A DNA stretch of 63,808 bases, the filler included, from Nemertoderma westbladi (lineage: Eukaryota; Animalia; Xenacoelomorpha), in assembly GCA_032718475.1 (NCBI GenBank). It is 4 parts of 4 records of this genome, joined end to end, with 100 filler letters (N's around TTAATTAATTAA, not from the genome) between each part and the next. Parts side by side here need not be neighbours in the genome. Positions count along the whole stretch, not along the records: positions 20,856 to 47,189 come from JAUCBJ010001258.1; 3 more parts are not named here. One strand, 5' to 3'. A program made the position numbers and the translations under genes. The notes under the pieces were generated by a model. It was not told where the DNA came from and did no database searches. It saw only the letters and a program-made list of their open reading frames with translations. Below, in pieces: positions 22,302 through 60,588 of this stretch. Every line of letters begins with the position of its first letter. The first letter of the stretch is position 1.

Positions 22302-25300
22302 ATGCATGAACCCTCTACCCCTTCATGCGCGCTCTGCTTCTCTCAATTTATCTCCTCGGACTACTACTTTAAATGTAATATTTGCGGCCATTCATATCAT
22401 GCACAATGTGGATCTTACCAATCCAGCTCTGAGATAGAAGCCACCCCAATGTCCTATGTCTACTGTATATTCTGTAATTTCGATATATTTCCGTTTTCCG
22501 TTGTAGACAATAATGACAGCGACATTTTTCACTATTTTTCTCCTGAAATAAATGATGACACAGACTCAAACATTATAAACCAAACATTTAGCCAGCTTGA
22601 CCCCGAAAATAATACAGTCTCACTTAATATAAATATAAATAACGGTTATTTTACAGAAGATACTTTTAACAACGACTTTAAAAATTTAGATAATACAGGC
22701 CTAAAAATATTCCACCTTAATGCTCGCAGCTTACCCAAAAATAAATCTGATATTGAAACTTTTCTCTTAACATTAACTACCAAATTCGATGTCATCACAT
22801 TTTCAGAAACTTTTTTAGACAGTAACTCAAATTTAAATGAAATCACTTTTCCCGGTTTTCACACCCCTTATCTTGACATCCGGAAAACAGGCGACAAATT
22901 AAATCGTGGTGGTACTGCTATCTATGTCAAGGAATCCCTGGATGTGTCCCCACGTCCTGATTTAAAAATGAATGGTCTTGAAAATTCATGGGTGCAAATC
23001 AAAAGACCACAAAATGCCAAGCCCTTAATTCTAGGCACTATTTACCGTAGACATTCTGTACTCCCTACTGATTTTCTTGAATTACTCGATCTAGCTCTAA
23101 CTGAACTTACTAAAAACAACTATGATGTAATTATCACAGGAGATATTAATATTAACCTTCTAAAATCAACCACTACTTCCAAATCCTATACTGACCTCAT
23201 TAATTCCTACGGTTTTATACAACTTATCAACCAACCTACACGTGTTTTTCATAATGAACTACCCGATCAGACAATACACTCTGAAACTCTTATAGATCAT
23301 ATACTTACAAACATTACTAATTATACTACTACAGCCGGTACTTTTAACTCACAAATAGGCACTTCTGATCACTATGCTACATTCGTTATCCTCCAGAAGT
23401 ACTCCTGTTACTTTCATCCAGCAGCTCCACACACAATATTCGATTACTCGCGTTTTAACAAGGATCAATTTCTGAGAGACGTAGCCAGTAGTAAATCTTG
23501 GTCTTATCTAACTCCAACTATAGCCGACAAGGACAAACTAGACTCTTTCTACTCCGATTTTAATTCTATCTGCGACAAACATTTACCTAAGAAATCTATT
23601 CCACCCCGTAAAAAATTATCTAAACCCTGGATGACTGATAATCTTATCAAAAGCTCCATTAATAAAAACAAATTATACAGAATTTACATTAGGAATCCTA
23701 CCCCTGCTAATACTCTTGCTTACAAAACCTATAGGAATAAATTAACTTCTACTCTAAGGGCTGCCGAGAAGGCCTATTACTCTAGTGGATTCGAAACTAA
23801 CTCAGGTAACATACGCAAAACATGGATAATTATAAACTCTGCATTAAATAAAACAAAACATTTAAATACTCCAAAAAAACTAACTATCCGTACTGATAAT
23901 TCTGCCAAAACCATCACCGACCCAAAGCAAATTGCTGAAGCTTTCAACCTACACTTTACTACCATAGGACCTAAACTAGCCAACGATATTCCTAAATCCA
24001 ACCGCTCCCCACTACGCTTCATTAACCACACTCGCTCTAACTCATTTTCACTGGTAGAGACATCCCCTGTCGAAGTCGAATATCTAATCCTCCAATTAGA
24101 CCCCAAATCTGCATCTCATGATTGTTTCCCCATTAAACTATTACAGTTGTCTGCTAAATTACTATCTATTCATCTATCTCACCTAATTAACCTATCGATA
24201 ACTCAAGGCTTCTTCCCTAAGGCTCTTAAATCGGCCAAAGTCATTCCCGTATTCAAGAGTGCCGACCCATCGGACACTAATAACTACCGACCTATTTCTC
24301 TTCTACCCGTAATAAGCAAACTGTACGAATCCATAATTAATAACCAACTACTCTCGTACCTAAAAAAATATTCCATATTGTCTAATTCTCAATTCGGCTT
24401 TCGCCCTAAATCTACAACATCCCATGCTCTGCTATCCGTTGTAGAGAATATTCACAAATACTTAGACCAAAAACTATTCACCAGTGCTATCTATATAGAT
24501 CTAAAAAAGGCTTTCGACACTATTGATCACTCTATCCTAACCTCTAAGCTAAACTCCTATGGTATCCGGGGAATACCACAGCAACTACTCTCAAGCTTCC
24601 TAGATTCTAGAACCCAATTTGTTTCTATCGGTAACCACCATTCTTCTAGTTTACCTATTACATGTGGTGTCCCACAAGGCGCCACTATCTCGCCAATCCT
24701 ATTCCTATTGTATATCAACGACCTTCCCAATGCTACCTCACTAATCTCAACATTATTTGCTGACGACACAACTCTTCGTATAACTAAACCTAATCTGGAC
24801 TCTTTAATCTCCATAACTAACTCTGAATTATCTAAGATTGCGGACTGGCTATCAGACAACCGTCTATCTCTCAATCTATCTAAGACTGAATATGCTATAT
24901 ACTCTAATTACCCTAATACTCACTCCGACCCAATACTAATTAACCATTCCCCCATTACTCGGAAACCACATTCTAAATTTCTAGGGGTTCTAGTAGATGA
25001 CAACTTAAACTGGAAATCTCACATTAAACATATTACGTCTAAAATCTCTAGAACCTCCGGAATATTCTACAAACTGCGTCACATATTTCCCCTTCGTATA
25101 CTTCGCCAACTATATTTTTCACTTGTACACCCCTATTTATTGTATGGCATTCTACTCTGGGGCAAAACCCATTCTTATACCCTACAACCCCTACGTATAA
25201 AAATAAACAAACTCCTCCGCTGTATTACTTTCTCGCACTACCGAGCTTCTTCTAAACCTATCTATAAGTCTCTCGGCATCCTACCTATTGACCTCCTCTA

Positions 25301-25589
25301 TAAGCACCAAGTAGGATCCCTCATGTACGATGTAAACGCTAACTTATTTAAACCTGATTCTACTCTAGGCTCATTATTCACCAAAATTTCCTCTGTACAC
25401 AGATATCCAACTCGCCTTGCTACTACGGATGGTTTCTCTATTCCGAAGGTCCGCCTAACTTCCTCCAAAGCTTCCATGAATTATCAAGGCCCTTCAATTT
25501 GGAACGCACTACCATCTCAATTAAAACACTCAAAATCAAAAAAAGCATTTTCGTCAGCGTATAAATACCACCTGTTAATGTCCCTGTAG
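22302..25589 (+). CDS. LINE ORF2p: N-terminal PHD-like finger, AP endonuclease and reverse transcriptase
   Basis: CALC..CNIC..HAQC..CIFC; HLNARSL, SET, GDININ, IDHI, SDH; NYRPIS, QFGFR, DLKKAFD, GVPQG, FADD, FLG. Confidence 0.95.
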   Translation: MHEPSTPSCALCFSQFISSDYYFKCNICGHSYHAQCGSYQSSSEIEATPMSYVYCIFCNFDIFPFSVVDNNDSDIFHYFSPEINDDTDSNIINQTFSQLDPENNTVSLNININNGYFTEDTFNNDFKNLDNTGLKIFHLNARSLPKNKSDIETFLLTLTTKFDVITFSETFLDSNSNLNEITFPGFHTPYLDIRKTGDKLNRGGTAIYVKESLDVSPRPDLKMNGLENSWVQIKRPQNAKPLILGTIYRRHSVLPTDFLELLDLALTELTKNNYDVIITGDININLLKSTTTSKSYTDLINSYGFIQLINQPTRVFHNELPDQTIHSETLIDHILTNITNYTTTAGTFNSQIGTSDHYATFVILQKYSCYFHPAAPHTIFDYSRFNKDQFLRDVASSKSWSYLTPTIADKDKLDSFYSDFNSICDKHLPKKSIPPRKKLSKPWMTDNLIKSSINKNKLYRIYIRNPTPANTLAYKTYRNKLTSTLRAAEKAYYSSGFETNSGNIRKTWIIINSALNKTKHLNTPKKLTIRTDNSAKTITDPKQIAEAFNLHFTTIGPKLANDIPKSNRSPLRFINHTRSNSFSLVETSPVEVEYLILQLDPKSASHDCFPIKLLQLSAKLLSIHLSHLINLSITQGFFPKALKSAKVIPVFKSADPSDTNNYRPISLLPVISKLYESIINNQLLSYLKKYSILSNSQFGFRPKSTTSHALLSVVENIHKYLDQKLFTSAIYIDLKKAFDTIDHSILTSKLNSYGIRGIPQQLLSSFLDSRTQFVSIGNHHSSSLPITCGVPQGATISPILFLLYINDLPNATSLISTLFADDTTLRITKPNLDSLISITNSELSKIADWLSDNRLSLNLSKTEYAIYSNYPNTHSDPILINHSPITRKPHSKFLGVLVDDNLNWKSHIKHITSKISRTSGIFYKLRHIFPLRILRQLYFSLVHPYLLYGILLWGKTHSYTLQPLRIKINKLLRCITFSHYRASSKPIYKSLGILPIDLLYKHQVGSLMYDVNANLFKPDSTLGSLFTKISSVHRYPTRLATTDGFSIPKVRLTSSKASMNYQGPSIWNALPSQLKHSKSKKAFSSAYKYHLLMSL

Positions 25590-26124: not shown

Positions 26125-27570
26125 CCGTGTTCTGAGTTTGGTCGGTTCACATATCGTGGATTCGAGTTTGTTTGGTTCACATATCGTGGTTCAGAGTTTG
26201 GTTGGTTCACATATCGTGGGTCAGAGTTTGGTTGGTTCACATATCGTGGTTCAGAGTTTGGTTGGTTCACATATCGTGGGTCAGAGTTTGGTTGGTTCTC
26301 ATATCGTGGGTCAGAGTTTGGTTGTTTCTCATATCGTGGATTCGAGTTTGGTTGGTTCACATATCGTGGTTCAGAGTTTGGTTGGCTCACATATCGTGGG
26401 TCAGAGTTTGGTTGGTTCTCATATCGTGGGTCAGAGTTTGGTTGTTTCTCATATCGTGGATTCGAGTTTGGTTGGTTCACATATCGTGGATCAAAGTTTG
26501 GTTGGTTCACATATCGTGGGTCAGAGTTTGGTTGGTTCACATATCGTGGTTCAGAGTTTGGTTGGTTCTCATATCGTGGTTCAGAGTTTGGTTGGTTCAC
26601 ATATCGTGGTTCAGAGTTTGGTTGTTTCTCATATCGTGGATTCGAGTTTGGTTGGTTCACATATCGTGGATCAGAGTTGGTTGGTTCACATATCGTGGTT
26701 CAGAGTTTGGTTGGTTCACATATCGTGGATCAAAGTTTGGTTGGTTCACATATCGTGGTTCAGAGTTTGGTTGGTTCACATATCGTGGATTCGAGTTTGG
26801 TTGGTTCACATATCGTGGTTCAGAGTTTGGTTGGTTCACATATCGTGGTTCAGAGTTTGGTTGGTTCACATATCGTGGGTCTGAGTTTGGTTGGTTCACA
26901 TATCGTGGATCAGAGTTTGGTTGGTTCACATATCGTGGGTCAGAGTTTGGTTGGTTCACATATAGTGGTTCAGAGTTTGGTTGGTTCACATATCGTGGTT
27001 CAGAGTTTGGTTGGTTCACATATCGTGGTTCAGAGTTTGGTTGTTTCTCATATCGTGGTTCCGAGTTTGGTTGGTTCACATATCGTGGGTCAGAGTTTGG
27101 TTGTTTCTCATATCGTGGTTCAGAGTTTGGTTGGTTCTCATATTGTGGTTCAGAGTTTGGTTGGTTCTCATATCGTGGATCAGAGTTTGGTTGGTTCACA
27201 TATCGTGGTTCAGAGTTTGGTTGGTTCACATATCGTGGTTCAGAGTTTGGTTGGTTCACATATCGTGGTTCAGAGTTTGGTTGGTTCACATATCGTGGAT
27301 CAGAGTTTGGTTGGTTCACATATCGTGGTTCAGAGTTTGGTTGGTTCACATATCGTGGTTCAGAGTTTGGTTGGTTCACATATCGTGGTTCAGAGTTTGG
27401 TTGGTTCACATATCGTGGTTCAGAGTTTGGTTGGTTCACATATCGTGGTTCAGAGTTTGGTTGGTTCACATATCGTGGTTCAGAGTTTGGTTGGTTCACA
27501 TATTGTGGTTTAGAGTTTGGTTGGTTCACATATAGTGGTTCAGAGTTTGGCTGATTCCCATATCGTTCAC
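26125..27570. repeat. 30-bp tandem satellite (TCAGAGTTTGGTTGGTTCACATATCGTGGT), about 48 copies
   Basis: Tandem array; source of the repetitive ORFs on both strands. Confidence 0.95.
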
Positions 27571-27860: not shown

Positions 27861-30800
27861 CTAACTGTCTTTATGTTTTTTTCTAGTTGTTAGTAATTTA
27901 ACTAAGTGGCTCTGGTTAGTTTTATTCAATAATTCACAGAATACAATAAAGTCATCATAAGGTCTCCTTTTAATGGCTTCTATTAGTTCGCTGTTTTTTT
28001 GTAAACCAGTCGGCTGATATTTGATCTGCTCAATAAGATTTTCAGTAAGAATATTTCTACTTCTCAATAGCGGTAACAATTCACTCAGCTCCATGTTATA
28101 AACCAGTTCAACTTTATTCCTCATAAGAATATTTTCAAATTCTACATCAACATTTCCTTTTATCATATCTACTAAATGTTGTTGGTTTGTTTGTGTTAAA
28201 CTATCCATAAATACTTTCATAATGAACTCTGATTTCCCTTTTAGAGATTCTATAATGGCTCGGCTCTTTAGTATTTTAGTTTCTCTTGTTTCTATAAACT
28301 GAATCTGATCATTGTTTAGTATAAAACTTTTTTCGATATATAGTAATAACTCAGTTGGTTCAAGTTTTTCTTCAATTTTTTTTGTTTCAACTTTTAAATA
28401 TTCCTGATCCTTTGATTTAACTAAAAACCAAGTTTTATATTCCTGAGTTTCTATACTTGCATTATTCTCACAGGTAATTATTGGTTTACTCAAACAATCT
28501 GATAGTAGAATAAAGTGGATACAGGATTCATTGTGGCATTTATATAGGCCATGCCTTTCACATTTATATGAACAAGGACATGTTACTTTCAATTGAAAAT
28601 CAACAATATTGTTCATTTTTCCAGCTGATATAAGTTCTCCCAAGCTGTCAACAATGTAATCTTTTACTCTGTTTGCAAAATCAGAATCTGGAGGACTTAT
28701 AAAATTTTCGTTGCTATCAATATTATCTTTAGGTTTCATAAGAACTTTTCTTACAATTTGAACTTTTATTCTAGAAAAATGCCTTGGAGACACATATAGA
28801 ATTATATCGTGATCAACATCACAGTATATAACTACAGACCGGTAGTAAAGAGTTGGTTCAGATTTAATATCTCCAATGAGATACGACCATTCTATAAGGC
28901 GTTTTACTAGTCGACAAAATAGACCCTCAGGTAAAAAACCATTAAATGCAATAAAAAATTCAATATCATTTGCTTTAATAGGGTAAATAGGCTGATTGGC
29001 ATTCTTAAGTCTACAAGGTACATAATATGATTTATTCATTTTTGACTTTTTTAACAATGTTTCTGATTCGTCTCCATTACCTGGCACAGTTTCTCCTATT
29101 CTTTCACATATTAAATCAAAACGCTCTAGGATTTTTAACATAAAATTTTTTTTGAGTCCCATATTACCCCAGATATCGTCCAGTAGATCCCAGTGCAATA
29201 TACCCTTGTCATCCAAATTCTCAAAATATTTCAAATTTTTCCAATTGATATGTTCTTTGACTGTAATAATACTGGCAAACATTGAACTTAACCACTCTGG
29301 TTTCAATATAATTGTATCACGCAACGATTCTTCATCAAAATAGATAATTCTACCTCTATCATGGTAAAATTCTAACATTGTCTTTAAACCGGGGTATTCA
29401 AATTCTACTTTTATTTCCTTTAACTTACATTCTAAATCTATAATATCAATATAAACGTCATCATTTTTAAGTAATTGAGTTACAAGTTTTTCAAATTTTA
29501 AATAATCCAAAGGAATTTCTTCCTTAAATTTGTCCATTTCTTTAACAATTTCTAGCTGTAAGTTTTGAAGTTCTTCATCTGAATCTGATCTTGCCTCTTT
29601 GCTATTTTCCACAGCAAATGCTTCTTTAACTAAAATATTGCAATGCAATGTGGACTTTAATAGTCGGAAAATTTCTTTAAACTTTTTACGAGCTAAAATG
29701 TTCTGAGTTTCTGGATCTTCATGCAAACTGGCTTTCTTTGTTCCAACTAAGAATACTGGAGGACCAGAAATGTTTGCGCCACTTTCTGAATTCTTTTTAC
29801 CAAATGTAAATATATTGCGCAACCAAAAATCAATAAATTCTATATTAGTCATCTCGCTATATATCTTATTTATATTCTCTTCATCGGCTCTGAATATAAT
29901 GTTGGCTGTTTTATCAGCATCTTGGGTAAGATCAAAAACAACTATATAAATAGCCCGTCTACTTAGAAACATCTGATGGGTGGTGTAATAAATACATTGG
30001 CCACCAAAATCGACTATCTGTAGAGAAAAGCGACTGTCTTCCTCATTAAATTTAGCCAGAATATCTTGAGGTTTACCAGATAACAATATATCCTCTATGC
30101 CTTTTGTGACTTCTGAAGGGATATCATATTTATTATCCTCAAATTTTGATTCATATGGTGTTACGACTTTTCCGCTATCAGATATATTTCCTCTTTCGCT
30201 ATCTACTGAAATATCTTCTCTAATTTCCTTGCTGCTTTTTATTTTAACAGGCTTATCATAAGAACTGGTTCTATTATTCATGTCTCTATCGCTATTTTCA
30301 CCAGATATTACAGATAAAGTTGACTGGATGCGATCAGTGTATATTTTTTCACTGTCCACATTAGATGCATCTTCTTGAACTTTGAATTCTAGAACACTTT
30401 TTGCAACTTTCTTTGCAACAGCATTGTCTGGATCAGCCTCTAAAATATCAACATTCTTTAAATTAGTCCAGTCTGTGTGTTTATCAGTATCTATAACACA
30501 ATTAGCCACTGAATCAATACCATCTGTTATTGGTTCATTTATATCAAACGGTTGACCAATAAGGGACTTCTTCAAACTTGTTTTACCAGCCCTCTCCTGT
30601 CCCACTAACATTAACCGGGTTTTCAATATCCATGTAGTCCCTTTAGAAAGAGCTGCTTTATAAGCAGCCAATGCTTCTGGCCCTCTCGCCAGTATCTCTA
30701 CTGGCAGTTTTTGTTCTTTTATATAATTAATTAAAAATTTTGGAAGTTTCATTCTATTTGATCCACTTATATTCATAATCATAAGTCCCATGTCTCTGAA

Positions 30801-31126
30801 TTTATTAACAATTTCTATTGTTGAAACTTCATTTAAACCCCAAATACTAACCAGATTCTGGGTTGTTAACTCAGAAATATCTGCATCCAGTTTAAAGTAA
30901 AGTTCTTTCTCTTTATCTGAAAGAACATCAACAGTAGATATAATTATATCAGTTATCTTACCCTGGAGTGGTTTATTTATGGGACCAACCCATCCGATAT
31001 ACTCAACAATTTCCTTTAATTCTTCAGATTCCGCCAATATACTTTCCACCTGTTCGATACTTTTCCTTTTTTCAGTTTGATCTTTACTGATCGTATCAAT
31101 TACTGTAATTGTGCCGTAAACATCTC
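27861..31126 (-). CDS. Roc GTPase, COR and tandem CARD exon (ORF 27861..31175 trimmed to the splice acceptor)
   Basis: P-loop GQERAGKTS, switch I TDG, DFGGQ, VGTK; COR motifs LEFYHDRGRIIYF, IILKPEWL, YYVPC, PEGLFCRL; two C-terminal CARD-like units ending TNQQHLVDMI and TNQSHLVKLL. Confidence 0.9.
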
Positions 31127-32131
31127 CTATATAAAGTATAATTATTGTTAAGCTGTCTTTCCACTGAGTTGACATCCAATATTACGATGAAAAATTCTGG
31201 GTTGGAGCAAATTAAATTTTATTAATCAAGTTACAAATATAATTATAAATATATTTCGTTAGGCTCTCCAGTATGCACCTACGGTCCCTATACGTTTCCC
31301 TGCCTATGTCTTCTGTTTTTTGGTTACAACATTTATTCTGTTTTTAGCGAAATTTTCAACAGATAACAAGTCGTACGTTACGTTAGTCAATTCTGCAATT
31401 TATATTAGTTTTGTACTTTATTGATAATGATAGCGCTGAGCTACAGAAATATATTTGTAATTATATTTGAAATTTGATTAATAATATTTAACTTGCGCCA
31501 ACCCTGAATTTTTCATCGAATATAACTGACATCTAAAACTTTCTTATAGTTAATTATTATTGCAAAAAAAAGGTATATAAAAGGTAAAAAAAAGGATTAT
31601 TGCAATGATAAATGGGACAATAGGCGAGACAATAGGCGGGACAATAGGCGGGAAAATAGGCGGGATAATAGGCGGGACAATATGCAGGACAATAGGGGGA
31701 CAATAGGCAGGACAAAACTACTACTACTACTAGGATCGGTATCAGTGGGGACTTCGCGCAGCACGAAGTTGGCAGAGCCTTAGCGAATTGACACTGTTAG
31801 GGGGTGGGTTAATTTATGCAAATAGTTGTCGTTGTCACGTTGGCCCTCTAGCGGCAGACTGGAGAACTGCAGATGGATTCGCCTCCTTTGAAAGTCACAG
31901 CTAATGGTCTAATACATATCTGCCAAGTTTCAGCTTAAACGGATTAAAAGCAAAGAAATGGGAGGGCATTTAATGTTTAGACATGTGGCCCTCTAGCGGG
32001 AGACCATTGCACTGATGGTGTTCTGAAAGTCTCTCAAAAATCTCAGCTTTTGCTCATATTGATACCTACAAATTTTCAACTTGGCAGCTTTAAATCCGAC
32101 AAAGTTATTAGCATGTCAAAATCGTAACGAC

Positions 32132-32163
<32 letters not shown>

Positions 32164-35100
32164 CGACAACGACGACGATGACGACGACAACTATTTGCAT
32201 AAATTGACCCACCCCCTAACAGTGTCAATTCGCTAAGGCTCCGCCAACTTCGTGGCTCACGTCCAGTGTCCTTTAAGATGCGTCTCAAGAAAGTCATGGG
32301 CTGTCCACCATGCTTATTCACTCCATGAGGCTGCCAAAGTACAAGATTATGCACTGGCTGGTCCTCACGGCGAAAGCAATGTCCTAAAAAGCGGAGGCGA
32401 TTTTGTTCTAGTGTCAAGCTTGAGGGAACCAATGAGACACCTCCAATGTTATACAGGCAGGACAATAGGCGGGACAATAGGCGGGATAATAGGCGGGACA
32501 GTAGGCAGGACAATTGGATGGTTAAAATTACATGGTTAATATAAACAACTACCCGCGATACTGTATACTGTTAATATAAACAACTACCCGCAATACTGTA
32601 TACTGTTAATATAAACAACTACCCGCGATACTGTATACTGTTAATATAAACAACTACCAGCGATACTGTATACTGTTAATATAAACAACTACCCGCGATA
32701 CTGTATACTGTTAATATAAACAACTACCCGCGATACTGTATACTGTTAATATAAACAACTACCCGCGATACTGTATACTGTTAATATAAACAACTACCCG
32801 CGATACTGTATACTGTTAATATAAACAACTACCCACGATACTGTATACTGTTAATATAAACAACTACCCGCGATACTGTATACTGTTAATATAAACAACT
32901 ACCCGCAATACTGTATACTGTTAATATAAACAACTACCCGCGATACTGTATACTGTTAATATAAACAACTACCCATGATACTGTATACTGTTAATATAAA
33001 CAACTACCCGCGATACTGTATACTGTTAATATAAACAACTACCCGCGATACTGTATACTATTAATATAAACAACTACCCGCGATACTGTATACTGTTAAT
33101 ATAAACAACTACCCGCGATACTGTATACTGTTAATATAAACAACTACCCGCGATACTGTATACTGTTAATATAAACAACTGCCCGCGATACTGTATACTG
33201 TTAATATAAACAACTACCCGCGATACTGTATACTGTTAATATAAACAACTACCCGCGATACTGTATACTGTTAAAATAAACAACTACCCGTGATACTGTA
33301 TACTGTTAATATAAACAACTACCCGCGATACTGTATACTGTTAATATAAACAACTACCCGCGATACTGTATACTGTTAATATAAACAACTACCCGCGATA
33401 CTGTATACTGTTAATATAAACAACTACCCGCGATACTGTATACTGTTAATATAAACAACTACCCGCGATACTGTATACTGTTAATATAAACAACTACCCG
33501 CGAGATGTGGTCGAGAATAGTCTCCAACACTCCGCTAGCTCCAACAGTAGCGCCCAAACCTACTGACGATACTGACTGTTTTATACGATTTGTACCAACA
33601 GTCTCCAAAGCTATAAAAACAATCCTTGATCAAATTGGATTGCACACATTTAATTTCGAACGTAGGACTCGGTCAAATATATTGGACCAGACGAACTACC
33701 AATTTAATCTTCGGTCTAACAGCAGTCAATAGTGCTGGTTTACAAGGCTGAGATACTGTAACTCCCTCTTGAAATGACTCCCCAATCGTCTCAGCCTAGG
33801 CTGAGAACACTCCCCACCCCCAGTTATGACTCCCCTTAGGCTGAGATGACTCCCCTAATTGAGTTATAATTCATATCCGTACAACTCTTCGATTTATCTC
33901 TTACTCTTTTACTTACTTACTATTTCTTACTCTTACTTTTACTCTTCTGTTACCCTGTTACCCTCGTTTCGCTGCCATTTTTCTCATCAATAGTGATTTA
34001 TTTTTTATATATTTTTGAAAGCTTGCATTGTGAGGATTCCAAATATGTATCAATGTCTAAATTTTGTTGAGAAACAAATGAGATATGGGCGTTCTAAGAT
34101 TGCAAGAAGTATCTTTCATTATAATATACCAGTTATTTATGTATATGTGTAGCTATGCATACATAAATATTTTGCCTATAAAACGATATTTCATAGGCAT
34201 GATACAAATAATAACACGTTCTAGAATGTTGTGTTTATATTAATTATAATAAATGACTTCCAGCGAATGATAATTTATCACAATCTTTGAACGCCAGTAC
34301 TATATCTCAGCTGTTTCTCAACGAAACTCAAAATATATTTATATTTGGAATCCTTACAACTCAAGCTTTCTAATAATATGTCGTTGTGGCTAATATGAGG
34401 AATGGTCGTATTGCAATGAGGGCGATATCGCAAACTTCAAACGTATATAAATTCAAAAAAGAAAATTCTACGTAGCTTCATGTTAAATAAAGTATGATAA
34501 AGACTGTATAAAAATAAGGTGGGGTGTGGGTTAGGGATGTCCCTTCTTATCTAAAATGACACTTTATTACGGGCAAGGTGTAATAATATATTATATTATA
34601 ATAAGCCTTTGTTGTATGCCTAAGTAATGGGACTGTGTGGCAGACTTGAAAATGAAAAATGAAAGTTTTTATTATACATTACCGGTTGTATTCTCTGTAC
34701 AGTTACTTTACTGTATTGCAGTACCGGTACGCCTATTGGCACCATTATAGTTTGGTTATTTAAGTAGAACTACCAGTTGGTTAAAACGCCATTGATACAA
34801 ACCAATCACAAACAACCTAACAGATAACTGAATACTACGGTGGTGAGTTGCGGCCAATTATTGCATTTTTTTTTTAAACGTTTAAAAAAAGTTATTTAAG
34901 TTTGTAAAAAAAAAATAATGTTTAAATTAATGTTTTGCTAAAAAAAATTAATGTTTTGCTAAAAAAAAGTTAATGTTTTGTTAAAAAAAATTAATGTTTT
35001 GCTAAAAAAAATTAATGTTTTGCTAAAAAAAATTAATGTTTTGCTAAAAAAAAATTAATGTTTTGCTAAAAAATATTAATGTTTTGCTAAAAAAAAATTA

Positions 35101-38100
35101 ATGTTTTGCTAAAAAAAATTAATGTTTTATAAAGTATAATTTGAATTTCCCGCTTTCTTCTGGCTTGTTGAAGTGAAGACAGAAGGCCTATCGAAAGATT
35201 TTCACTTTCAGTCTCCCCTTCAGTTGTTGTATTATAATATTAGCTGTAGGTAGATACCGGTACGGTTGGTATGTGTAGGGAAGGGAAGAAAGGCCTATTA
35301 TCATATAAAACACTGTAGATTCGAATTTTATGAGTTGTGACGAGTCTGTCTCTAGGCCTATGTATTCATCTAAAGCAAAAGGTACAGGAAGTTCAAGGTT
35401 GCGTTCCTTACAGCGGGGGCGCCCAAAGTTAAAAGATAAAGCCATTCTGTTCAAATGTTTAGTCGACACAGGTAGGGGAGGGGCACTGCGGTAATTAAAA
35501 AACTTCTTGGTGCCTCAACTACACTTAGGATTATGGTACCACTGCGACAACCCATTATAAGTGTAAAAAATCTTATCATTGATAAACTCTTTCCTAATGG
35601 GAAAAATAGGACATTGTTAGCGAAGAAATTACCTTCAGCTCCAAGTGAATACGATTTCACTTTAGTCGATGCGAATAACGATTCCATTGAGAGCTACAAA
35701 TGTTTAGATGAATATTGTGTTGCAAATTGTGTTGTTGGAGTACCACGTATTGACATTTTATGTTGTAAGCTATCGGTAGTTGAAGACTCAACTATAGATC
35801 AAAATGTTATTGACTCAACTATAAATCAAGATGTTATTGAGGTCGCCGTAGCTACATGTATAGATAAGATTCCCACTGAAACATCATCTAATGATAACAC
35901 AGAATGTGGAAGAAGGTTAATTTGTCCAGTGTGCAGTACCTCCAGGCCGAGAAATGAACCATTTTGTGATAATTGTCGGATATTATCAGATTATGAAAAC
36001 TCTGTCTTATTTGATTCATTCGCTATGACAGAAGACTATTTAGAGAACGAGATAATGACTAGTGAAATTTCACACGGTGGACTGCGTGAAGAAGTGGCAG
36101 GTCTCCGGGTTGCCTACTTTCAAAATCGCCCAGAACCATTGAATATCGATATGGATATCGAAGAATCAAATACACCTGATGAATTACCAACAAGACCACC
36201 CGTTGCCTGCGAAATTGAAAGTAATTCTACCCACTTAGTCGAGGCCGCAACTACTAGGCCACAAAATGTGAGTTTAGCTGATGCCTTATTGGCAGCACGA
36301 TATACTTTGGGAGAGAAGGCGGGTCTCTCTTATACATTGTTTGAGTTACCACGAAGTAGACTAACCGATAGTTTATATGAAATACTAGAGTTGGAAGATA
36401 TTAAATCTCCTTCTGTTACTGTTAAGTTTATGGGTGAAGATGCCGTAGACACAGGGGGGCCATTTCGAGAACTCTTATCGATATTTTTTTTGCATCAACC
36501 GCCATCCCTTTTCAGAGGACAGTATCCACATTTTACCTTCCGTCACAATTTGGAATTATTAACCAATTTCAAAAACTTAGGTAAAATTGTAGCATTGGGT
36601 CTTATTAACGGCGCCGCAGGTCCACATTTCCTCACCCATTCTCTGGCATGTGCAGTATTAGATATTCCATTTAAAACCGCTCTGGAAGAAGTCCCCCTTG
36701 ACGAAGAATATCGCGAGAAACTAATTTCAATTAAACAATCAATCGATGAGACTACATTTCAGGAATGCATGGGGTCATTCACAGAGCGTTTTGATATGGG
36801 GGTGGTAAAGGGTTCCCTAAGCATAGACGAAAAGGATAGTTTATTGAGTTTATTGTGTCGCCATATTGTTGTTAGCTCAGTTGGGGAAGAGATATATAAT
36901 TTTAAAGAAGGCCTTAACATCTTTGGTGCTTATGATATTATGAGAGAGTATCCTGAGGAGAGTTACAAAGCGTTGACTTTTGTAGAAGTTACTTACGAAG
37001 AGGCCAAAATGTGTTTTAATCCCATATATGAATCTGGAGAAAAGACAAGACAGCGTGAAAAGGAAATAGAAATAACTTTCAAATTTCATAATTTCATGAA
37101 GAAAGCTAGCAAAGGATTACTATCAATGGAGATCATTACTAATGATGATACAGTTAGAAAGTTATTATCACTTGGTGACATTATTCAGTTTGGAAGTGGC
37201 TCCCGCTATCCAAACTTTGAAGGAGAACTTAGATTTTTCCAAACTGAGTACAAGCAAAGACGACTTGTTGGAGATACTTGCGGAAAAGTATTACGATTTC
37301 CTATAAATGATCGTTACTTGTTGGGTTCAAGCGATCAATTTTCGAGGCGTCTGCTGACTGATATGTTTGATGATCTGGGTTTTGGACTTCAGTAGATTTT
37401 TGAGACGGGTTACGGGACTTCTGCGGGTTTCCCGTCGATTATTGAGACGGGTTATGGGACTTCTGCGGGTTTCCCGTCGATTATTGAGACGGGTTACGGG
37501 ACTTCTGCGGGTTTCCCGTCGATTATTGAGACGGGTTATGGGACTTCTGCGGGTTTCCCGTCGATTATTGAGACGGGTTATGGGACTTCTGCGGGTTTCC
37601 CGTCGATTATTGAGACGGGTTACGGGACTTCTGCGGGTTTCCCGTCGATTATGGAGACGGGTTATGGGACTTCTGCGGGTTTCCCGTCGATTATTGAGAC
37701 GGGTTATGGGACTTCTGCGGGTTTCCCGTCGATTATTGAGACGGGTTATGGGACTTCTGCGGGTTTACTGTCTGTGTGTCTATTATTAATAATTGGTTTA
37801 ATCAATCATTTAAAATGTTTTTAATAATTATAAATCATATGTTCAGTAATTGTTACCTATACTTATTTATTGACAACTATATACACGTTCGTGGGGACTT
37901 CGCGCAGCACGTAGTCGGCAAGCCTTGGCATACGGTTCATATAGAGCAAATGGGGCATGTCTAGTTTGGACCCAATATCCCATGCTATAAATGTATTCAT
38001 TCGATATACAATCATATGTTAATCCGCTAGGTGGTGTCAAATTGTTATTCTGCAATTTCGTACTTACCAGTGCAGCACTGTACAGCAGTAACGTACCGGT

Positions 38101-41012
38101 AGGCCTATGTCATTACTTCTGAGTCTCTAGCGGATCCCCAATTAAATGTCTTAACTTTTCAATTTCGTAAAAGATAGACTTCATGATTCTCTACAGGCCA
38201 CCAAAATTTCAGCTCAGGAAAATGAGGCCTTCCCGAGAAATTTAACATTTTCTAAAAACTACATAATCTGTCGTAGCTGACGTCAGACTGCATGATTTTT
38301 CACCAAACTTTACAAACTTTCTAAACTTTCTCTCTACTACTTACCTACTAAGTTTGGTTCAATTCCGAACCAGCGATGCAGAGAAATTCGCGTTCAAACA
38401 TTTACCAGACAGACGGACGGACAGACAGACAGACAGACGGACATGCCCCATTTGCCCTATATGAACCGTATGCCAAGGCTCGCCGACTACGTGTCTCGCC
38501 CCACAAGTTGGGGAACAAAAAATGCACTTCAAATACAATTGAAATAAATACATACAGTAGTAATGCAAATGTGTTTGTATCTTACTAAATATATGAATCA
38601 ATTTCCTTCATAATAATATTAATTAAGTACAGCGCCGTCGCTTTACAATCCCCAAGATTTACGATTTACACATTACAGATTTACACAATTGTCACGGTGT
38701 GGAAAGCGTAGAAAACGTTGAATGGTTTCCACATTCACGTTTTCGGTTCCTCGATCTGAACGTATCAAATTTGGCACGCCCCCCATTGCGCAGACAACTT
38801 CTAAAAAATATTGACCTATGATAAAGGGATCATTATTAGTGGATGCACTCTTCAGCCAAATTAATTTGCGGCTATAACCGTCGATGCAGCCATGTATGGC
38901 TAAGCCAAACGGCTTTAGCTTATCCCATCCGTCCATATGGAATATAAAGTTTGGCCCCTTTGCTATGTAGGTTCGTCTCACAAGTTTATTCCCCAGGCGT
39001 TGTTTTACTAGGTCGGGATTTAAGACTTTCTGAATGAAGGCCACAATTTCCTCACGGACAAAGAGGCCATACTTGAACAGCAGTATTTTCTTCATATGTC
39101 TATAGCCAGAAGAAGGCTCCGCAAGAATTGCACTAACTATTTCGGGTAACCGTTCGATTTGAAACCTCTTATGCAATTCCATATCGCCCAATCGTCGACG
39201 AATTGTTCGTATAGAAATATCCTCAAAGTGCTCTTCACGCAGTAAGCAAGAGATTTCCTTGTATGTAAATCCCTTCTTAAAGTATGCTAGCAACACGCGG
39301 TTGTCCATGTCCGTACGAAATAATTAAACGGATAGCTTACCGGTATCGCGTACAATAAGACTACAGTCTAATCGTATTGCACACAATTAACAGCCAAGAA
39401 TGAAGTACCTAAGCCTATGTAGGCCTACTTAGCAAAACATTGATTTTTTTTTATCAAAACATTAATTTTTTTTATCAAAACATTAATTTTTTTTTATCAA
39501 AACATTATTTTTTTTATACAAAACATTAATTTTTTTTTATCAAAACATTAATTTTTTTTTATCAAAACATTATTTTTTTTTATCAAAACATTAATGTTTT
39601 TTTATCAAAACATTATTTTTTTTTAACAAAGCATTAATTTTTTTTTAGCAAAACATTAATTTATTTTTTCAAACTTAAATAACTTTTTTTAAACGTTAAA
39701 AAAAAAATGCAATAATTGGCCGCAACTCACCACCGTAGAATACATAATATTATTCAGCTAATTGCTGGTTTATTAGTTTATTTTTATGTTACATTATTAC
39801 TGCAACCAAACCGCACCTAAAACTATCCGACTACAGGGACTATGTTGTAATGGTCTATATTCTGATACCCCTATTAGACTAATTTTAATTTCGTTCCCAT
39901 GGTACCCAATATTGGCAGGAGGCAGTGAAGGTAATGTTCAGTTAATCCGCATCATATCGGTAAGTAAATTATTAATTAAATAAAATAAAATTAAATAATA
40001 ATAATTAATGTAATTAATTAATTTAAGTGTTATAATTATTATTACTTACTATGGTACGTGGTACGGTACTGAATTAGACCCTAGGCCTAATTAATTAATT
40101 TAACGTGTTTTAATAAAAGAGGTCTATTAATTAATTACCTGTAATAATATGCCGGTCTTCTTTACAGAAACCCACCGCTTGGATGCCGCTCCCCGTTCCT
40201 TTAATCCGGTTGATAACCTCCCCAGTTACAGAATTTAGAATATAAATCAACCCGGTGTTCCTCCCAACAGCAGCGATTCTGGATCCGTTCGGACTCAATA
40301 CGATCCACCGGACGTTAGGAGTTGCTTCCTGTCTCCACAAGGTCTCCCCTGCACCAACAACGAAGCGATGGATCCCTCCTCCCCCATCTACCGACACCAC
40401 TGACTCCCCATCCGGACCCCAACCCAGACTCCAGACCCTCCCACTGTGCCCCCGGTATTGGTACAACATCTCCTGGGTTTCGGTCACCCAAACTTTTACT
40501 GTTCTATCGTCCGAACCGCTGGCCAACCGGGACCCGTTCGAGTCGAACCGAATACAGGTAACCGACCCAGAATGCCCCGCCCAGTTCGTAACCTTATATT
40601 TCCCCCCAGTTATTGATATAATAGAAATCCCCCCGTCGGTCCCACAAGTTGCAACGACGTCCCGGTTGGAGGGATTTATATCTATTTCCCACCTATATTT
40701 ATACTCCCCCCCACCAACCACTAACTCCCCCCTCGGTACCTCCACTACGACCCTCCAACCGGTCGTTTCCCGCTCCCAGACAGTCACCGTCCCCCCCCCG
40801 ACCGGTTCCCGAGGCAACGCGGTTCCCGTCCGTAGAAACCGCGACTCTCCAGTATTCGTTAGAACCTCCGGATCCCGGTAGATATTCCTTTTTGTAGAGA
40901 GTTGTTGAATTTATGATACAGGGGAGGTTGTAAGACACAAAGACAACCTCCTCGGTACCCGGGATCATTTTGAGATCCTTGATCGGCGCCATTGTTAGGG
41001 GGATTATTGAAT
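27861..41012 (-). CDS. ROCO-family protein, WD40(x7)-Roc-COR-CARD-CARD; exons 41012-40139 and 31126-27861, about 1370 aa counted from Met 40992
   Basis: The phase-1 donor ACAG|gtaatt (40139) and phase-1 acceptor tatatag|GA (31126) join as DRHIITG-DVYGTITVID and complete the seventh WD40 repeat. One extra G in a G9 run (40791-40799) must be removed to keep the WD40 exon in frame. Confidence 0.75.
31186..31517. mobile_element. MITE (MuDR-like) in the intron next to the ROCO acceptor
   Basis: TIR GATGAAAAATTCTGGGTTGG / CCAACCCTGAATTTTTCATC; imperfect 9-bp flanks CAATATTAC / GAATATAAC. Confidence 0.65.
31717..32455 (-). mobile_element. RTE 3' fragment (same family as 8321-9369), interrupted by a HINE/MITE
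   Basis: 32263-32455 matches 8448-8640; (TAG)n tail at 31717-31737. Confidence 0.85.
31745..32262. mobile_element. HINE/MITE-like non-autonomous element with about 70-bp subterminal inverted repeats and a (GAC)n microsatellite
   Basis: CACGAAGTTGGC..TTATGCAAATAGTTGTCG (31762-31832) is inverted at 32180-32254; shares GTGGGGACTTCGCGCAGCACG with the element at 37891. Confidence 0.75.
32535..33502. repeat. 35-bp tandem satellite (GTTAATATAAACAACTACCCGCGATACTGTATACT), about 27 copies
   Basis: Homogeneous tandem array with no spacers. Confidence 0.95.
34010..34375. mobile_element. Degenerate foldback/MITE remnant
   Basis: GAAAGCTTG..GGATTCCAAATAT..GTTGAGAAAC is inverted at 34310-34370. Confidence 0.5.
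35533..37395 (+). CDS. Transposon-borne HECT-domain E3 ubiquitin ligase-like protein (G2E3-like) with a C4 zinc ribbon
   Basis: CPVC..CDNC; VKFMGEDAVDTGGPFRE (HECT N-lobe); GDTCGKVLRFP (catalytic Cys motif); GFGLQ* with Phe near the C-terminus. Confidence 0.82.
   Translation: MVPLRQPIISVKNLIIDKLFPNGKNRTLLAKKLPSAPSEYDFTLVDANNDSIESYKCLDEYCVANCVVGVPRIDILCCKLSVVEDSTIDQNVIDSTINQDVIEVAVATCIDKIPTETSSNDNTECGRRLICPVCSTSRPRNEPFCDNCRILSDYENSVLFDSFAMTEDYLENEIMTSEISHGGLREEVAGLRVAYFQNRPEPLNIDMDIEESNTPDELPTRPPVACEIESNSTHLVEAATTRPQNVSLADALLAARYTLGEKAGLSYTLFELPRSRLTDSLYEILELEDIKSPSVTVKFMGEDAVDTGGPFRELLSIFFLHQPPSLFRGQYPHFTFRHNLELLTNFKNLGKIVALGLINGAAGPHFLTHSLACAVLDIPFKTALEEVPLDEEYREKLISIKQSIDETTFQECMGSFTERFDMGVVKGSLSIDEKDSLLSLLCRHIVVSSVGEEIYNFKEGLNIFGAYDIMREYPEESYKALTFVEVTYEEAKMCFNPIYESGEKTRQREKEIEITFKFHNFMKKASKGLLSMEIITNDDTVRKLLSLGDIIQFGSGSRYPNFEGELRFFQTEYKQRRLVGDTCGKVLRFPINDRYLLGSSDQFSRRLLTDMFDDLGFGLQ
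37398..37765. repeat. 42-bp tandem repeat (ATTGAGACGGGTTATGGGACTTCTGCGGGTTTCCCGTCGATT), about 9 copies
   Basis: Starts immediately after the HECT stop codon. Confidence 0.92.
37885..38507. mobile_element. HINE/DINE-1-like non-autonomous element nested in the IS3EU-like transposon
   Basis: About 55-bp inverted repeats (CACGTAGTCGGC..AAATGGGGCATGTC), a GACA/GACG microsatellite at 38408-38442, and GTGGGG/CCCCAC ends. Confidence 0.75.
38673..39308 (-). pseudogene. IS3EU-type DDE transposase (HTH and integrase core), truncated or internally deleted before the third catalytic residue
   Basis: ISIRTIRRRL HTH; FHMDGWDKLKPFGLAIHGCIDGYSR and RSDRGTEN supply the two Asp; the downstream NQRIER-type Glu motif is absent and the frame stops after a short duplicated TGTGTAAATC. 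Confidence 0.8.
40139..41012 (-). CDS. WD40-repeat exon (seven repeats, the last completed by the next exon); apparent 1-nt homopolymer frameshift
   Basis: GHSGSVTCIRFDSNGSRLASGSDDRTVKVW, GHSGRVWSLGWGPDG and others; ttttag| acceptor and |gtaatt donor; ORFs 40699..41031 and 40131..40817 meet at a G9 run. Confidence 0.85.
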
Positions 41013-42722: not shown

Positions 42723-43034
42723 TAGAGCAATATAAATTTGTTATTAATAGAAATTGTTTCCAACTTTATAACTACATGTAAAAATGGAAGCAGGACAATT
42801 CGGTCCCGGACAATTCGGTCCCATTTATTTTGTGTTATGGGACCGAATTGTCCGTGACCAAATCCTACCAATTGGTACTATAATGGTGAATGTTCTCAAC
42901 CTTAGTATATATTTTTCTACGGTAACTAGTGTTTTTTTACTAGTTAATCATTAAAAAATTCACTTTTTATCCGCAAAATGCGGACATAAAATACTTTTTT
43001 GTCCGCATATGCGGACAAACCCGGATGCGGATAC

Positions 43035-46000
43035 ACCCCTTCCACAGATCCCCCCATACCTCCCACTCCGTCTCCTACACCATCCACAGATCCCCCCATA
43101 CTTCCCGCACCGCCTCCCACACCCTCCAAAGATCCTCCTGTACTTCCCACTCCGTCTCCCACGCCGTCCACAGATCCCGCCATACCTCCCACTCCGTCTC
43201 CTACACCATCCACAGACCCTCCTGTACTTCCCACTCCGTCTCCTACACCCTCCAAAGATCCTCCTGTATTTCCCACTCCGTCTCCTACACCATCCACAGA
43301 TCCCCCCATACCTCCCACTCCGTCTCCTACACCATCCACAGATCCCCCATACTTCCCACACCGCCTCCCACACCCTCCAAAGATCCTCCTGTACTTCCCA
43401 CTCCGTCTCCCACACCGTCCACAGGTCCCCCCATACCTCCCACTCCGTCTCCTACACCATCCACAGATCCCCCCATACTTCCGACTCCGCCTCCCACACC
43501 CTCCAAAGATCCTCCTGTATTTCCCACTCCGTCTCCTACACCTCCACAGATCCCCCCATACCTCCCACTCCGTCTCCTACACCATCCACAGATCCCCCCA
43601 TACCTCCCACTCCGTCTCCTACACCATCCACAGATCCTCCTGTACTTCCCACTCCGTCTCCCACACCGTCCACAGATCCCCCCATACTTCCCACTTCGCC
43701 TCCCACACCCTCCACAGATCCCCCCATACCTCCCACTCCGTCTCCTACACCATCCACAGATCCCCCCATACTTCCGACTCCGCCTCCCACACCCTCCAAA
43801 GATCCTCCTGTACTTCCCACTCCGTCTCCCACACCCTCCACAGATCCCCCCATACCTCCCACTCCGTCTCCCACACCCTCCAAAGATCCTCCTGTACTCC
43901 CCACTCCGTCTCCCACACCGTCCACAGATCCTCCTGTACTTTCCACTCCGTCTCCCACACCCTCCAAAGCTCCTCCTGTACTTCCCACTCCGTCTACTAC
44001 ACCCTCCACAGATCCCCCCATACCTCCCACTCCGTCTCCTACACCATCCACAGATCCCCCATACTTCCGACTCCGCCTCCCACACCCTCCAAAGATCCTC
44101 CTGTACTTCCCACTCCGTCTCCCACACCCTCCACAGATCCCCCCATAGCTCCCACTCCGTCTCCCACACCCTCCAAAGATCCTCCTGTACTTCCCACTCC
44201 GTCTCCCACACCGTCCACAGATCCTCCTGTACTTCCCACTCCGTCTCCCACACCGTCCACAGATCCTCCTGTACTTTTCACTCCGTCTCCCACACCCTCC
44301 AAAGATCCTCCTGTACTTCCCACTCCGCCTCCCACACCCTCCACAGATCCTCCTGTACTTCCCACTCCGTCTCCTACACCCTCCACAGATCCCCCCATAC
44401 CTCCCACTCCGTCTCCTACACCATCCACAGATCCCCCATACTTCCGACTCCGCCTCCCACACCCTCCAAAGATCCTCCTGTACTTCCCACTCCGTCTCCC
44501 ACACCCTCCACAGATCCCCCCATACCTCCCACTCCGTCTCCCACACCCTCCAAAGATCCTCCTGTACTTCCCACTCCGTCTCCCACACCCTCCACAGATC
44601 CTCCTGTACTTCCCACTCCGTCTCCCACACCGTCCACAGATCCTCCTGTACTTTCCACTCCGTCTCCCACACCTCCAAAGATCCTCCTGTACTTCTCACT
44701 CCGCCTCCCACACCCTCCACAGATCCTCCTGTACTTCCCACTCCGTCTCCTACACCCTCCACAGATCCCCCCATACCTCCCACTCCGTCTCCTACACCAT
44801 CCACAGATCCTCATGTACTTCCGCTCCGCCCCACACCCTCCACAGATCCCCCCATACCTCCCACTCCGTCTCCTACACCATCCACAGATCCTCATGTACT
44901 TCCGACTCCGCCTCCCACACCCTCCAAAGATCCTCCTGTACTTCCCACTCCGTCTCCTACACCCTCCACAGATCCCCCCATACCTCCCACTCCGTCTCCA
45001 CACCTCCACAGATCCTCATGTACTTCCGCTCCGCCTCCCACACCCTCCAAAGATCCCCTACTCCCACTCCGTCTCCACACCTCCACAGATCCTCTGTACT
45101 TCCCTCCGCCTCCCACACCCTCCAAAGATCCTCCTGTACTTCCCACTCCGTCTCCCACACCCTCCACAGATCCCCCCATACCTCCCACTCCGTCTCCTAC
45201 ACCATCCACAGATCCTCATGTACTTCCGACTCCGCCTCCCACACCTCCACAGATCCTCCCGTACTTCCCACTCCGTCTCCCACACCCTCCACAGATCCTC
45301 CTGTACTTCCCACTCCGTCTCCTACACCCTCCACAGATCCCCCCATACCTCCCACTCCGTCTCCTACACCCTCCACAGATCCCCCCATACTTCCCACACC
45401 GCCTCCCACACCCTCCAAAGATCCTCCTGTACTTCCCACTCCGTCTCCCACACCCTCCACAGATCCCCCATACCTCCCACTCCGTCTCCCACACCATCCA
45501 CAGATCCCTCCTGTACTTCCCACTCCGTCTCCCACACCCTCCAAAGATCCTCCTGTACTTCCCACTCCGTCTCCCACACCGTCCACAGATCCCCCCATAC
45601 CTCCCACTCCGTCTCCCTACACCATCCACAGATCCCCCCATACTTCCGACTCCGCCTCCCACACCCCCCAAAGATCCTCCTGTATTTCCCACTCCGTCTC
45701 CTACACCCTCCACAGATCCCCCCATACCTCCCACTCCGTCTCCCTCCACCCTCCACAGATCCCCCCGTACTTCCCACTCCGTCTCCCACACCGTCCACAG
45801 ATCCCCCCATACTTCCCACTTCGCCTCCCACACCCTCCACAGATCCCCCCATACCTCCCACTCCGTCTCCTACACCATCCACAGATCCCCCCATACTTCC
45901 CACTCCGCCTCCCACACCCTCCAAAGATCCTCCTGTACTTCCCACTCCGTCTCCCACACCCTCCACAGATCCCCCCATACCTCCCACTCCGCCTCCCACA

Positions 46001-47050
46001 CCCTCCAAAGATCCTCCTGTACTCCCCACTCCTTCTCCCACACCGTACACAGATCCTCCTGTACTTTCCACTCCGTCTCTCACACCCTCCAAAGCTCCTC
46101 CTGTACTTCACACTCCGTCTACTACACCCTCCACAGATCCCCCCATACCTCCCACTCCGTCTCCTACACCATCCACAGATCCCCCATACTTCCGACTCCG
46201 CCTCCCACACCCTCCACAGATCCTCCTGTACTTCCCTCGCTCCCACACCCTCCAAAGATCCTCCTGTACTTCCCACTCCGCTCCACACCCTCCACAGATC
46301 CCCCTACTCCCACTCCGTCTCCACACCCTCCACAGATCCCCCCATACCTCCCACTCCATCTCCTACACCATCCACAGATCCTCATGACTCCACTCCGCTC
46401 CCACACCCTCCAAGATCCCCTACCCCACTCCGTCTCCACACCGTCCACAGATCCTCATGTACTTCCGACTCCGCCTCCCACACCCTCCAAAGATCCTCCT
46501 GTACTTCCCACTCCGTCTCCTACACCCTCCACAGATCCCCCCATACCTCCCACTCCGTCTCCTACACCATCCACAGATCCTCATGTACTTCCACTCCGCC
46601 TCCCACACCCTCCAAAGATCCTCATGTACTTCCCACTCCGTCTCCTACACCCTCCACAGATCCCCCCATACCTCCCACTCCGTCTCCCACACCATCCACA
46701 GATCCTCATGTACTTCCGACTCCGCCTCCCACACCCTCCAAAGATCCTCCTGTACTTCCCACTCCGTCTCCTACACCCTCCACAGATCCCCCCGTACCTC
46801 CCACTCCGTCTCCCACACCATCCACAGATCCTCATGTACTTCCGTCTCCGCCTCCCACACCCTCCAAAGATCCTCCTGTACTTCCGACTCCGCCTCCCAC
46901 ACCCTCCAAAGATCCTCCTGTACTTCCCACTCCGCCTCCCACACCGTCCACAGATCCTCCTGTACTTCCACTTCGCCTCCCACACTCTCCACAGATCCTC
47001 CTGTACTTCCCACTCCGTCTCCCACACCGTCCACAGATCCTCCTGTACTG
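43035..47050. repeat. 4-kb 39-bp minisatellite (CCACAGATCCTCCTGTACTTCCCACTCCGTCTCCCACAC-like), about 100 copies
   Basis: Tandem array with many indels; source of dozens of spurious ORFs. Confidence 0.95.
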
Positions 47051-58364: not shown

Positions 58365-59224
58365 TGGTTCACGGTCCTTGACATAAGTGTTGGTTCACGG
58401 TCCTTGACATAAGTGACCATTATTACCGTAATGTGTGTGTGTGTGTGTGTGTGTTAGTGTGTGTGTGTGTCCAGAGCGATATCTCAGTTATTTATTAATC
58501 AATCGAAACAAAATTTGGACAAAAGTTAGATATAGGGATGGCGAAGGCTCATACAAAAAATTGGGTGTCGAGATGGTATTTGTGCGATGTGAGCGCTATA
58601 TTTGCGTGTTTTCGCATGGTTTAGGAAAAAGCTATCTTGTCATAGGGAACGCAATGAATGATTCTGATATTTGGCATGGAGGTACCTGAATTATTTCTAA
58701 ATCGATTAACGGAGGCCGATTTTAAAATTTGGACCTACATTATGACCTAATTGAAGATTTAATTAAGGTAATTAATTAGCACTGCTAGTACTGTCTGATC
58801 GTCTGCCTGTAGTAGGCATAGGCATACCGGACCGGTACTACCTGACCACTGTAGGCATATCTGCCTATCTTCATACTGTCATACCGGTAGGTCAGTACAG
58901 CAGTAGGTCCTACTGTCCTAGCCTAGCCCTAGCAGTAAATATAATATTTCGCCATGTTCGCAGGCGACTTCGCACCGTACCGGTATAAATGTTGGCGGAT
59001 GACGGGATGACGTCGTGTGGCGCGTATAATTACTTACCGGTTGCCGGTAGACGCCTACCCAACTCGTCACTGGTGGTCGTGGTCGTGGTGGGATGAGCTG
59101 AGCATGAGGTCGCCTACGATGGGAACAAGTGAAAAGGAAACATAGGCCTACCCGAACGAAAACGTATTATTATTGTACTGATTAAGTAGGAGGACCGTGA
59201 ACCCTCCAGGCTTGCCAGCTTGTG
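58365..59224 (+). mobile_element. Helentron-associated (HINE-like) element
   Basis: Subterminal IR GGTTCACGGTCCT (duplicated at the 5' end) / AGGACCGTGAACC, a (GT)n microsatellite and a short 3' stem-loop CAGGCTTGCCAGCTTG. Confidence 0.65.
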
Positions 59225-60483: not shown

Positions 60484-60588
60484 CACATAATTACAATTAA
60501 GATTACAACTACCAGACTGCCGTTTCTATCAGAACAATAACGCAATTTTATCTGATTACAATACTGCAATAGGCCTACAACAAATACA

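Follow-up and report, generated by a model that had tools for sequence, protein, structure and literature searches.

A predicted ROCO-family gene joining WD40 repeats, Roc-COR and two CARDs in the xenacoelomorph Nemertoderma westbladi

There are several described systems in which a Roc-COR core is combined with domains of immunity or cell death. Trichoplax adhaerens is reported to have at least 17 ROCO genes with CARD, death, TPR, LRR and AAA domains (Civiero et al. 2014, PMC4104024), and these resemble the protein described here in that Roc-COR is flanked by CARD among other domains; the text of that paper available to us contains 0 occurrences of WD40. Another source includes N-terminal WD40 among the repeats of ROCO proteins and gives about forty animal domain combinations (PMC11378527). 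Roc-COR proteins with TIR, Death and Neuralized domains have been noted in anemones and Aplysia, in what amounts to a passing mention in the accessible text (PMC5094078, PMC9334734). Bacterial proteins of the type repeat-AP-GTPase(Roc)-COR-effector have a predicted defence role (Kaur et al. 2021, PMC8195603). As far as that account goes, they share with our protein the repeat sensor, the Roc-COR and a variable C-terminal effector, and differ in being bacterial, with LRR sensors and TIR, caspase or other effectors, whereas our core groups with animal proteins. The human ROCO proteins have varied roles, MFHAS1 among them has no kinase, and a nucleotide-dependent change of oligomer is reported for MFHAS1 and C. 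tepidum Roco, according to the portion available of PMC6337361. The placozoan Apaf-1 expansion is covered without ROCO in the accessible text of PMC6321704. No description of a WD40-Roc-COR-CARD protein, and no experiment on immune or death function of the invertebrate family of Roc-COR fusions, was found in the largely open-access literature searched.

We analyzed a window of 63,808 nucleotides of Nemertoderma westbladi (assembly GCA_032718475.1), four parts of the genome joined by filler. It is animal DNA in which the exons are GC-rich and the introns AT-rich, and in which LINEs and long arrays of tandem repeats occur. The features of the locus are collected in Table 1. It encodes domains that lie in order on one strand, in exons of matching splice phase, and it is a member of the ROCO family. 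We consider that this is probably a real gene whose domain combination is new among the relatives examined, and that it is NLR-like by analogy, not an NLR.

Table 1. Features of the locus and neighbouring landmarks (positions along the window)
Feature	Positions	Strand	Remarks
Stop codon	27861..27863	-	AATAAA/ATTAAA hexamers after it, at 27818, 27703 and 27694
CARD 2	27888..28133	-	Pfam CARD E 4e-12, 46.5 bits
CARD 1	28158..28388	-	Pfam CARD E 9e-6, 26 bits
Cys/His-rich unit after COR	28470..28580	-	alignment
COR	28605..29522	-	Pfam COR-A E 3e-12
Roc GTPase	29610..30638	-	~150-residue insert between G2 and G3
Helical segment, possible STAND-type winged helix (a lead only)	30714..30962	-	Atlas matches 0.80-0.84
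Exon 2 start, strand completing last WD40 blade	31086..31126	-	blade score gain on joining
Predicted phase-1 intron, 9012 bp	31127..40138	-	inferred; ~4100 bp without the large transposon
MITE-like element, 79-bp inverted ends	31179..31523	.	just upstream of acceptor 31126
IS3EU-like DNA transposon	34836..39737	.	66-bp inverted ends, TA..TA termini, 6-bp target duplication
Second frame of IS3EU-like element	35476-37395	+	639 codons; in Pfam only a weak zinc-ribbon match
Inverted-repeat element nested in IS3EU-like transposon	37908-38493		
Integrase-core frame of IS3EU-like element	38673-39323	-	Pfam integrase core E 2e-17
Exon 1 (WD40 propeller)	40139..41012	-	AT-rich AG acceptor before 41012; phase-1 GT donor after 40139
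Nine-G run, WD40 frame break	40791..40799	-	one WD40 repeat spans the break
Candidate upstream exon, 76 nt	59038..59113	-	pyrimidine tract-AG, GTAAGT donor; by inspection only
Leucyl-tRNA synthetase (LARS)	60556-62043	+	single exon, ~1.45 kb

Most of the protein is encoded by exon 2. The minus-strand frame at 27861-31181 is open for 1106 codons, and from the acceptor at 31126 it provides an intact exon of 1087 codons, with a chance of about 1e-43 by base composition. Besides COR-A, Pfam recognized Roc (E 5e-13) and the two CARDs (jointly E 9e-15) in this frame. COR follows Roc directly, a point on which Pfam, PDB sequence matches and a fold search agree, and in the fold search the Roc-COR model matched LRRK1, C. 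tepidum Roco and LRRK2 (E 3e-19 to 1e-16). In the alignment blocks the G1 P-loop, the G2 Thr and the G3 DxxG of Roc are intact, and the insert between G2 and G3 is common to the relatives. The guanine-specificity Asp of G4 is replaced by Ala. Among 136 aligned cores this residue was Asp in 95, one of Asp, Asn or Glu in 120 and Ala in 4, and the relatives P0001 and P0019 likewise have no Asp there. The Cys/His-rich unit, likely zinc-binding, is found behind COR in most aligned relatives as well.

Between the propeller and Roc there are about 125 mostly helical residues that an earlier note on this DNA did not mention. All the named Atlas matches of this segment were winged-helix families of STAND proteins, and against our own profile of 15 bacterial NB-ARC proteins it scored 4.8 bits, a value reached by 13 of 2000 shuffles. 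For a winged helix here, hhalign returned a probability of 0.7%, and phmmer, Pfam and PDB searches gave no support. That note had called for structure prediction. For exon 2 the full model was confident for Roc-COR only, the helical segment staying below pLDDT 50, and single-sequence models of the CARDs were helical with pLDDT about 40.

The C-terminal units had been proposed to be CARDs, and each alone exceeds the Pfam cut-off (26 and 46.5 bits against 23.9). Their mutual score of 88 was reached by none of 1000 shuffles, and the pair likely originated by tandem duplication. The top PDB matches of CARD 2 were CARDs of apoptosome and PIDDosome proteins (CED-4, Apaf-1, RAIDD and caspase-9, E 0.005-0.04); they were weak and single out no binding partner. 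Past the stop codon, one of the long tandem arrays of the window begins after some 300 bp.

Exon 1 contains the WD40 propeller, found by Pfam in the minus-strand frame 40131-40910 (E 2e-19). It has an ATG in good context (ACAATGG) at 40992, and its final base is followed by GTAATT; read unspliced, it meets a stop codon one codon beyond the donor. The propeller has a periodicity of 42, matched by none of 300 shuffles. Seven repeats had been counted before; the profile gives five clear and one weak, and the first blade is recognized by eye only. The best 120 of 486 homologues of this exon are all proteins of bacteria and fungi with many repeats, for the most part at 24-36% identity; they include neither a close relative nor a protein that spans the junction. 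Given the AG acceptor before 41012, a further upstream exon is likely. No coding exon was recognized by eye upstream of 41012 in 124 open frames, of which those with GC of at least 0.40 were inspected.

As assembled, exon 1 is not the single frame that had been assumed. Inside the second WD40 blade, at a run of nine G, the reading shifts between the frames 41010-40801 and 40793-40140, and translation from the ATG at 40992 reaches a stop at 40701-40699. The repeat across the break, read with X, scored 23.6 bits with the WD40 profile; for the best half-repeat upstream, the first frame gave 26.9 bits and the second -7.2. Since one repeat spans the break and only the first frame is WD40-like upstream of it, both pieces belong to one gene, and a WD40 exon that does not read through as assembled means either that the assembly is wrong here or that the allele is a young null. 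We think it rather unlikely that the gene model is right but the copy seen here has recently become a pseudogene or null allele, in which the extra G is real and translation stops at 40701. The break is present in the sequence, and the intron contains a little-decayed transposon. The same reading is favored by the fact that none of 149 candidate small introns bypassing the break was convincing (the best had weak sites and lost whole blades), and by the other five long coding stretches of the window, which show 0 frame breaks, indicating that the assembly is not generally indel-ridden. Against this, the break is the sole lesion seen in some 4.1 kb of coding DNA, and it sits in the longest single-base run of the six coding stretches checked, long one-base runs being a common site of assembly error. 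An assembly error in the nine-G run is the likelier explanation. The product of about 1370 residues proposed before is reproduced (1372 positions with X) only if the break is read through.

The GT donor after 40139 and the AG|G acceptor at 31126 are both present and both of phase 1, as claimed, and there are no N gaps between the exons. To rank the acceptor, two WD40 profiles were built from the repeats of the best 120 of the 486 homologues of the WD40 exon. In a fixed-register test, devised after the result of a local-HMM test, the 12 residues past the junction were scored against them. Between the exons there are 224 open AG sites, and site 31126 came first among them with either profile, by a margin of about 10 bits. 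It was second and first, respectively, of 1279 open AG sites over 40 kb downstream, and first of 235 among AG sites with at least 100 open codons after them. In the local-HMM test, where 1063 open AG sites were ranked, it was not among the best 15; this ranking failed to separate sites because the score could rest on exon 1 plus the Ser past the junction. Upon joining exon 2 the last blade increased from -2.0 to 7.9 bits, the join completing a WD40 blade that exon 1 by itself leaves unfinished, and the spliced blade scored 20.6 bits versus -8.3 for the unspliced genomic frame. Donor 40139 had no other partner exon among the sites with at least 100 open codons.

Within the predicted intron lie a 4.9-kb transposon, a pair of small elements with inverted repeats, pieces of LINEs and tandem repeats. 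The inverted ends of the IS3EU-like transposon are still 98.5% alike, and its second frame, by eye, is presumably HECT-like. Its TA..TA termini and 6-bp target duplication are defining traits of IS3EU, as given in the accessible text of PMC10045372. The stop codon that bounds the long frame of exon 2 lies in the MITE-like element.

The codon composition of the two exons is different. GC3 is 0.56-0.58 in exon 1, resembling the LARS exon, and 0.24 in exon 2 (27864-31124), less than in the LINE frame (0.35) and far under host exons (0.53-0.62). This contrast fits separate genes, or joined exons of different origin. Exon 2 could thus be a stand-alone or differently spliced Roc-COR-CARD gene, with the WD40 exon as a relic or part of another transcript. 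We regard such a pair of units as very unlikely. It agrees with the GC3 values (0.57 versus 0.24), the in-frame ATG at 31175, the scarcity of sequence before Roc in many relatives and the fact that the broken part is the WD40 exon. It does not agree with the residues after AG 31126, which fit the blade end in exact register above 223 other open sites, with the negative score of the unspliced frame or with a donor left without another partner of that length. The one-gene reading is favored by the acceptor rank, the completed blade, an intron made of transposon and repeats without a gap, the intact exon 2, the G run as sole lesion, and the good context of ATG 40992 compared with the poor context of ATG 31175. 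It is therefore very likely that both exons belong to one gene, joined by a predicted splice. The WD40 exon and the 1087-codon exon with Roc, COR and two CARDs are both real, and a single kinase-less WD40-Roc-COR-2xCARD gene, as suggested in the earlier note, withstood the sequence tests, provided that the frame break is an error.

Other features of the window were apparent. The LARS exon has at most 69% identity to any of the 120 proteins listed, with vertebrates as top matches. In a LINE at 20971-25589 (+) the two frames, of 252 and 1112 codons, are both open (endonuclease, reverse transcriptase), and long tandem arrays produce spurious open frames at 26129-27566, 43034-47049 and 7087-8142. 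Exons at about 12140-12390 and 15720-16060 (+) may, judged by eye, belong to a LAMP (lysosomal membrane glycoprotein) gene, and an inverted repeat at 13662-15636 adjoins the second of them.

As relatives of the Roc-COR core we used 50 plus 147 proteins, the best 197 of 5142 representatives passing E 0.001. Pfam was run on 72 of the 147, namely all 42 in which at least 180 residues precede Roc, and 30 of the 50 others whose C-terminal flank is long. Death, DED or CARD was found in 38 of these 72, a caspase domain in four (P0311, P0330, P0399, P0408), CARD in five (after COR in three: P0327, P0370, P0404), a kinase in one, NHL repeats in one and WD40 in none. The first 50 relatives added fusions to RIG-I, NACHT, SH2/SH3 and GT4; the only WD40 among them is in P0048, C-terminal and with a kinase. 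WD40 before Roc was not found among the best 197 of 5142, and our own WD40 profile, not very sensitive since it barely detected the WD40 of P0048, had no clear match in any of the 197. Taken together, the effector or partner domains fused to related cores are Death, DED, CARD, TIR, caspase, Bcl-2, NACHT and RIG-I. P0330 combines Bcl-2, Roc-COR and caspase in a single chain, and in the gene models P0311, P0399 and P0408 Roc-COR is likewise fused directly to caspase. The brittle-star P0016 has CARD, a full RIG-I helicase, Roc-COR and Death in one protein.

A core tree was built with the 136 sequences covering most of the core (62 of the 197 relatives were excluded). With midpoint root, the window core was sister, with support 0.83, to a group of 48 sequences that holds the Neuralized-Roc-COR-Death-TIR proteins. 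It belongs to an invertebrate ROCO group whose ends are swapped. These proteins (P0001, P0003, P0006, P0291 and others) are conserved in echinoderms, hemichordates and molluscs. Their cores, from sea urchin (P0001), Ptychodera (P0003) and molluscs, are the closest among the best 197 of 5142, with 31-35% identity over about 770 residues, but the long branch of the window core does not allow an orthologue call. Common to both are the split Roc, the Cys-rich unit, the lack of kinase and a death fold after COR. They differ in that WD40 replaces Neuralized, two CARDs replace Death and TIR, and the window protein has the extra helical segment.

P0370 (1190 aa) is similar in layout: a non-helical N-terminal domain comes first, then Roc-COR, and a pair of CARDs forms the C-terminus. 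The tree puts its core far off, in another clade and at a distance of 3.4, and its Roc-COR-2xCARD probably arose independently. P0370, P0389 and P0349 share an N-terminal domain of about 230 residues and end in CARDs, Death and HEPN respectively; in P0370 this domain looks propeller-like by eye, yet it had no Pfam, PDB or repeat signal. Of the domain-architecture search proposed before, the exact WD40-Roc-COR-CARD was absent in the best 197 of 5142 relatives, whereas Roc-COR-2xCARD exists in P0370. The novelty was overstated for that reason and because ROCO with CARD or death domains in Trichoplax (PMC4104024) and N-terminal WD40 (PMC11378527) appear in the accessible literature.

The window protein has the Roc-COR fold of LRRK1/2, DAPK1 and MFHAS1 but no kinase, LRR or ankyrin (Pfam gave no match to LRRs before Roc or a kinase after COR), and the WD40 of LRRK, unlike this one, is C-terminal. 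In DAPK1 a death domain follows COR. Apaf-1/CED-4 and the NLRs likewise combine repeats (WD40 or other), a nucleotide switch and CARD in a single chain; the CARDs of Apaf-1/CED-4 weakly resemble CARD 2, and the window protein has a possible winged helix. The domain order is however reversed, STAND proteins having the death fold N-terminal and the repeats C-terminal. Unlike Apaf-1/NLR, proteins with Roc-COR have been reported to occur as monomers and dimers and not as rings. No Pfam match to NB-ARC or NACHT was found in the window protein, and our own NB-ARC profile scored below zero. The description "apoptosome/NLR-like" is thus an analogy. That an apoptosome was rebuilt around a GTPase, with WD40, a STAND-type winged helix and two Apaf-1/CED-4-type CARDs on a Roc-COR that replaced NB-ARC, as a GTP-gated caspase-activating platform, we find highly doubtful.

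Our preferred reading, held with middling confidence, is a single kinase-less ROCO gene for a cytosolic sensor-switch-adaptor in cell death or innate immunity, if the frame break reflects a mistake in the assembly or a minor allele. The role is suggested by the domain company in the fusions of the relatives. The earlier idea of a sensor-switch-effector fits relatives that fuse the core to Death, DED, CARD, TIR or caspase, its function being deduced from such fusions. In the proposed mechanism, exon 1 would be spliced to exon 2, and the propeller would bind a ligand or keep the protein closed. The nucleotide state would alter the oligomeric state of Roc-COR, a behaviour reported for C. tepidum Roco and MFHAS1, and this may cluster or free the CARD pair. 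The pair would then recruit a partner with a CARD, for which an initiator caspase or a RAIDD-like adaptor is the likeliest candidate. The gene would likely have originated when a WD40 exon of the host became linked to a Roc-COR-CARD exon from the end-swapping family. We counted against this receptor reading the frame break, the GC3 contrast, the local-HMM result, the absence of a WD40-before-Roc relative, a G4 without Asp and the weak CARD matches to apoptosome proteins.

It is quite unlikely, in our judgement, that the product of this one gene is instead a scaffold or decoy, with CARDs that hold back the recruitment of caspases or have a role outside immunity, and with a Roc that may bind nucleotide poorly. 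The atypical G4 and the lack of enzyme output would suit it, and CARD-only caspase inhibitors do exist. The roles of human ROCO proteins are also varied (PMC6337361, in part). However, G1, G2 and G3 are intact, P0001 and P0019 are also without the G4 Asp, and the fusions in ROCO relatives are mostly to effectors.

If expressed, the sensor-switch-adaptor would be a ROCO protein that is compact, lacks a kinase and has an output that can be read, namely CARD recruitment. It could serve to test the standing prediction that Roc-COR is an immune or death switch like the STAND ATPases. WD40-Roc-COR-CARD would be one more product of a family known for domain shuffling, and it points to a large, little-studied family of invertebrate ROCO proteins fused to caspases, Bcl-2, TIR, RIG-I and death folds.
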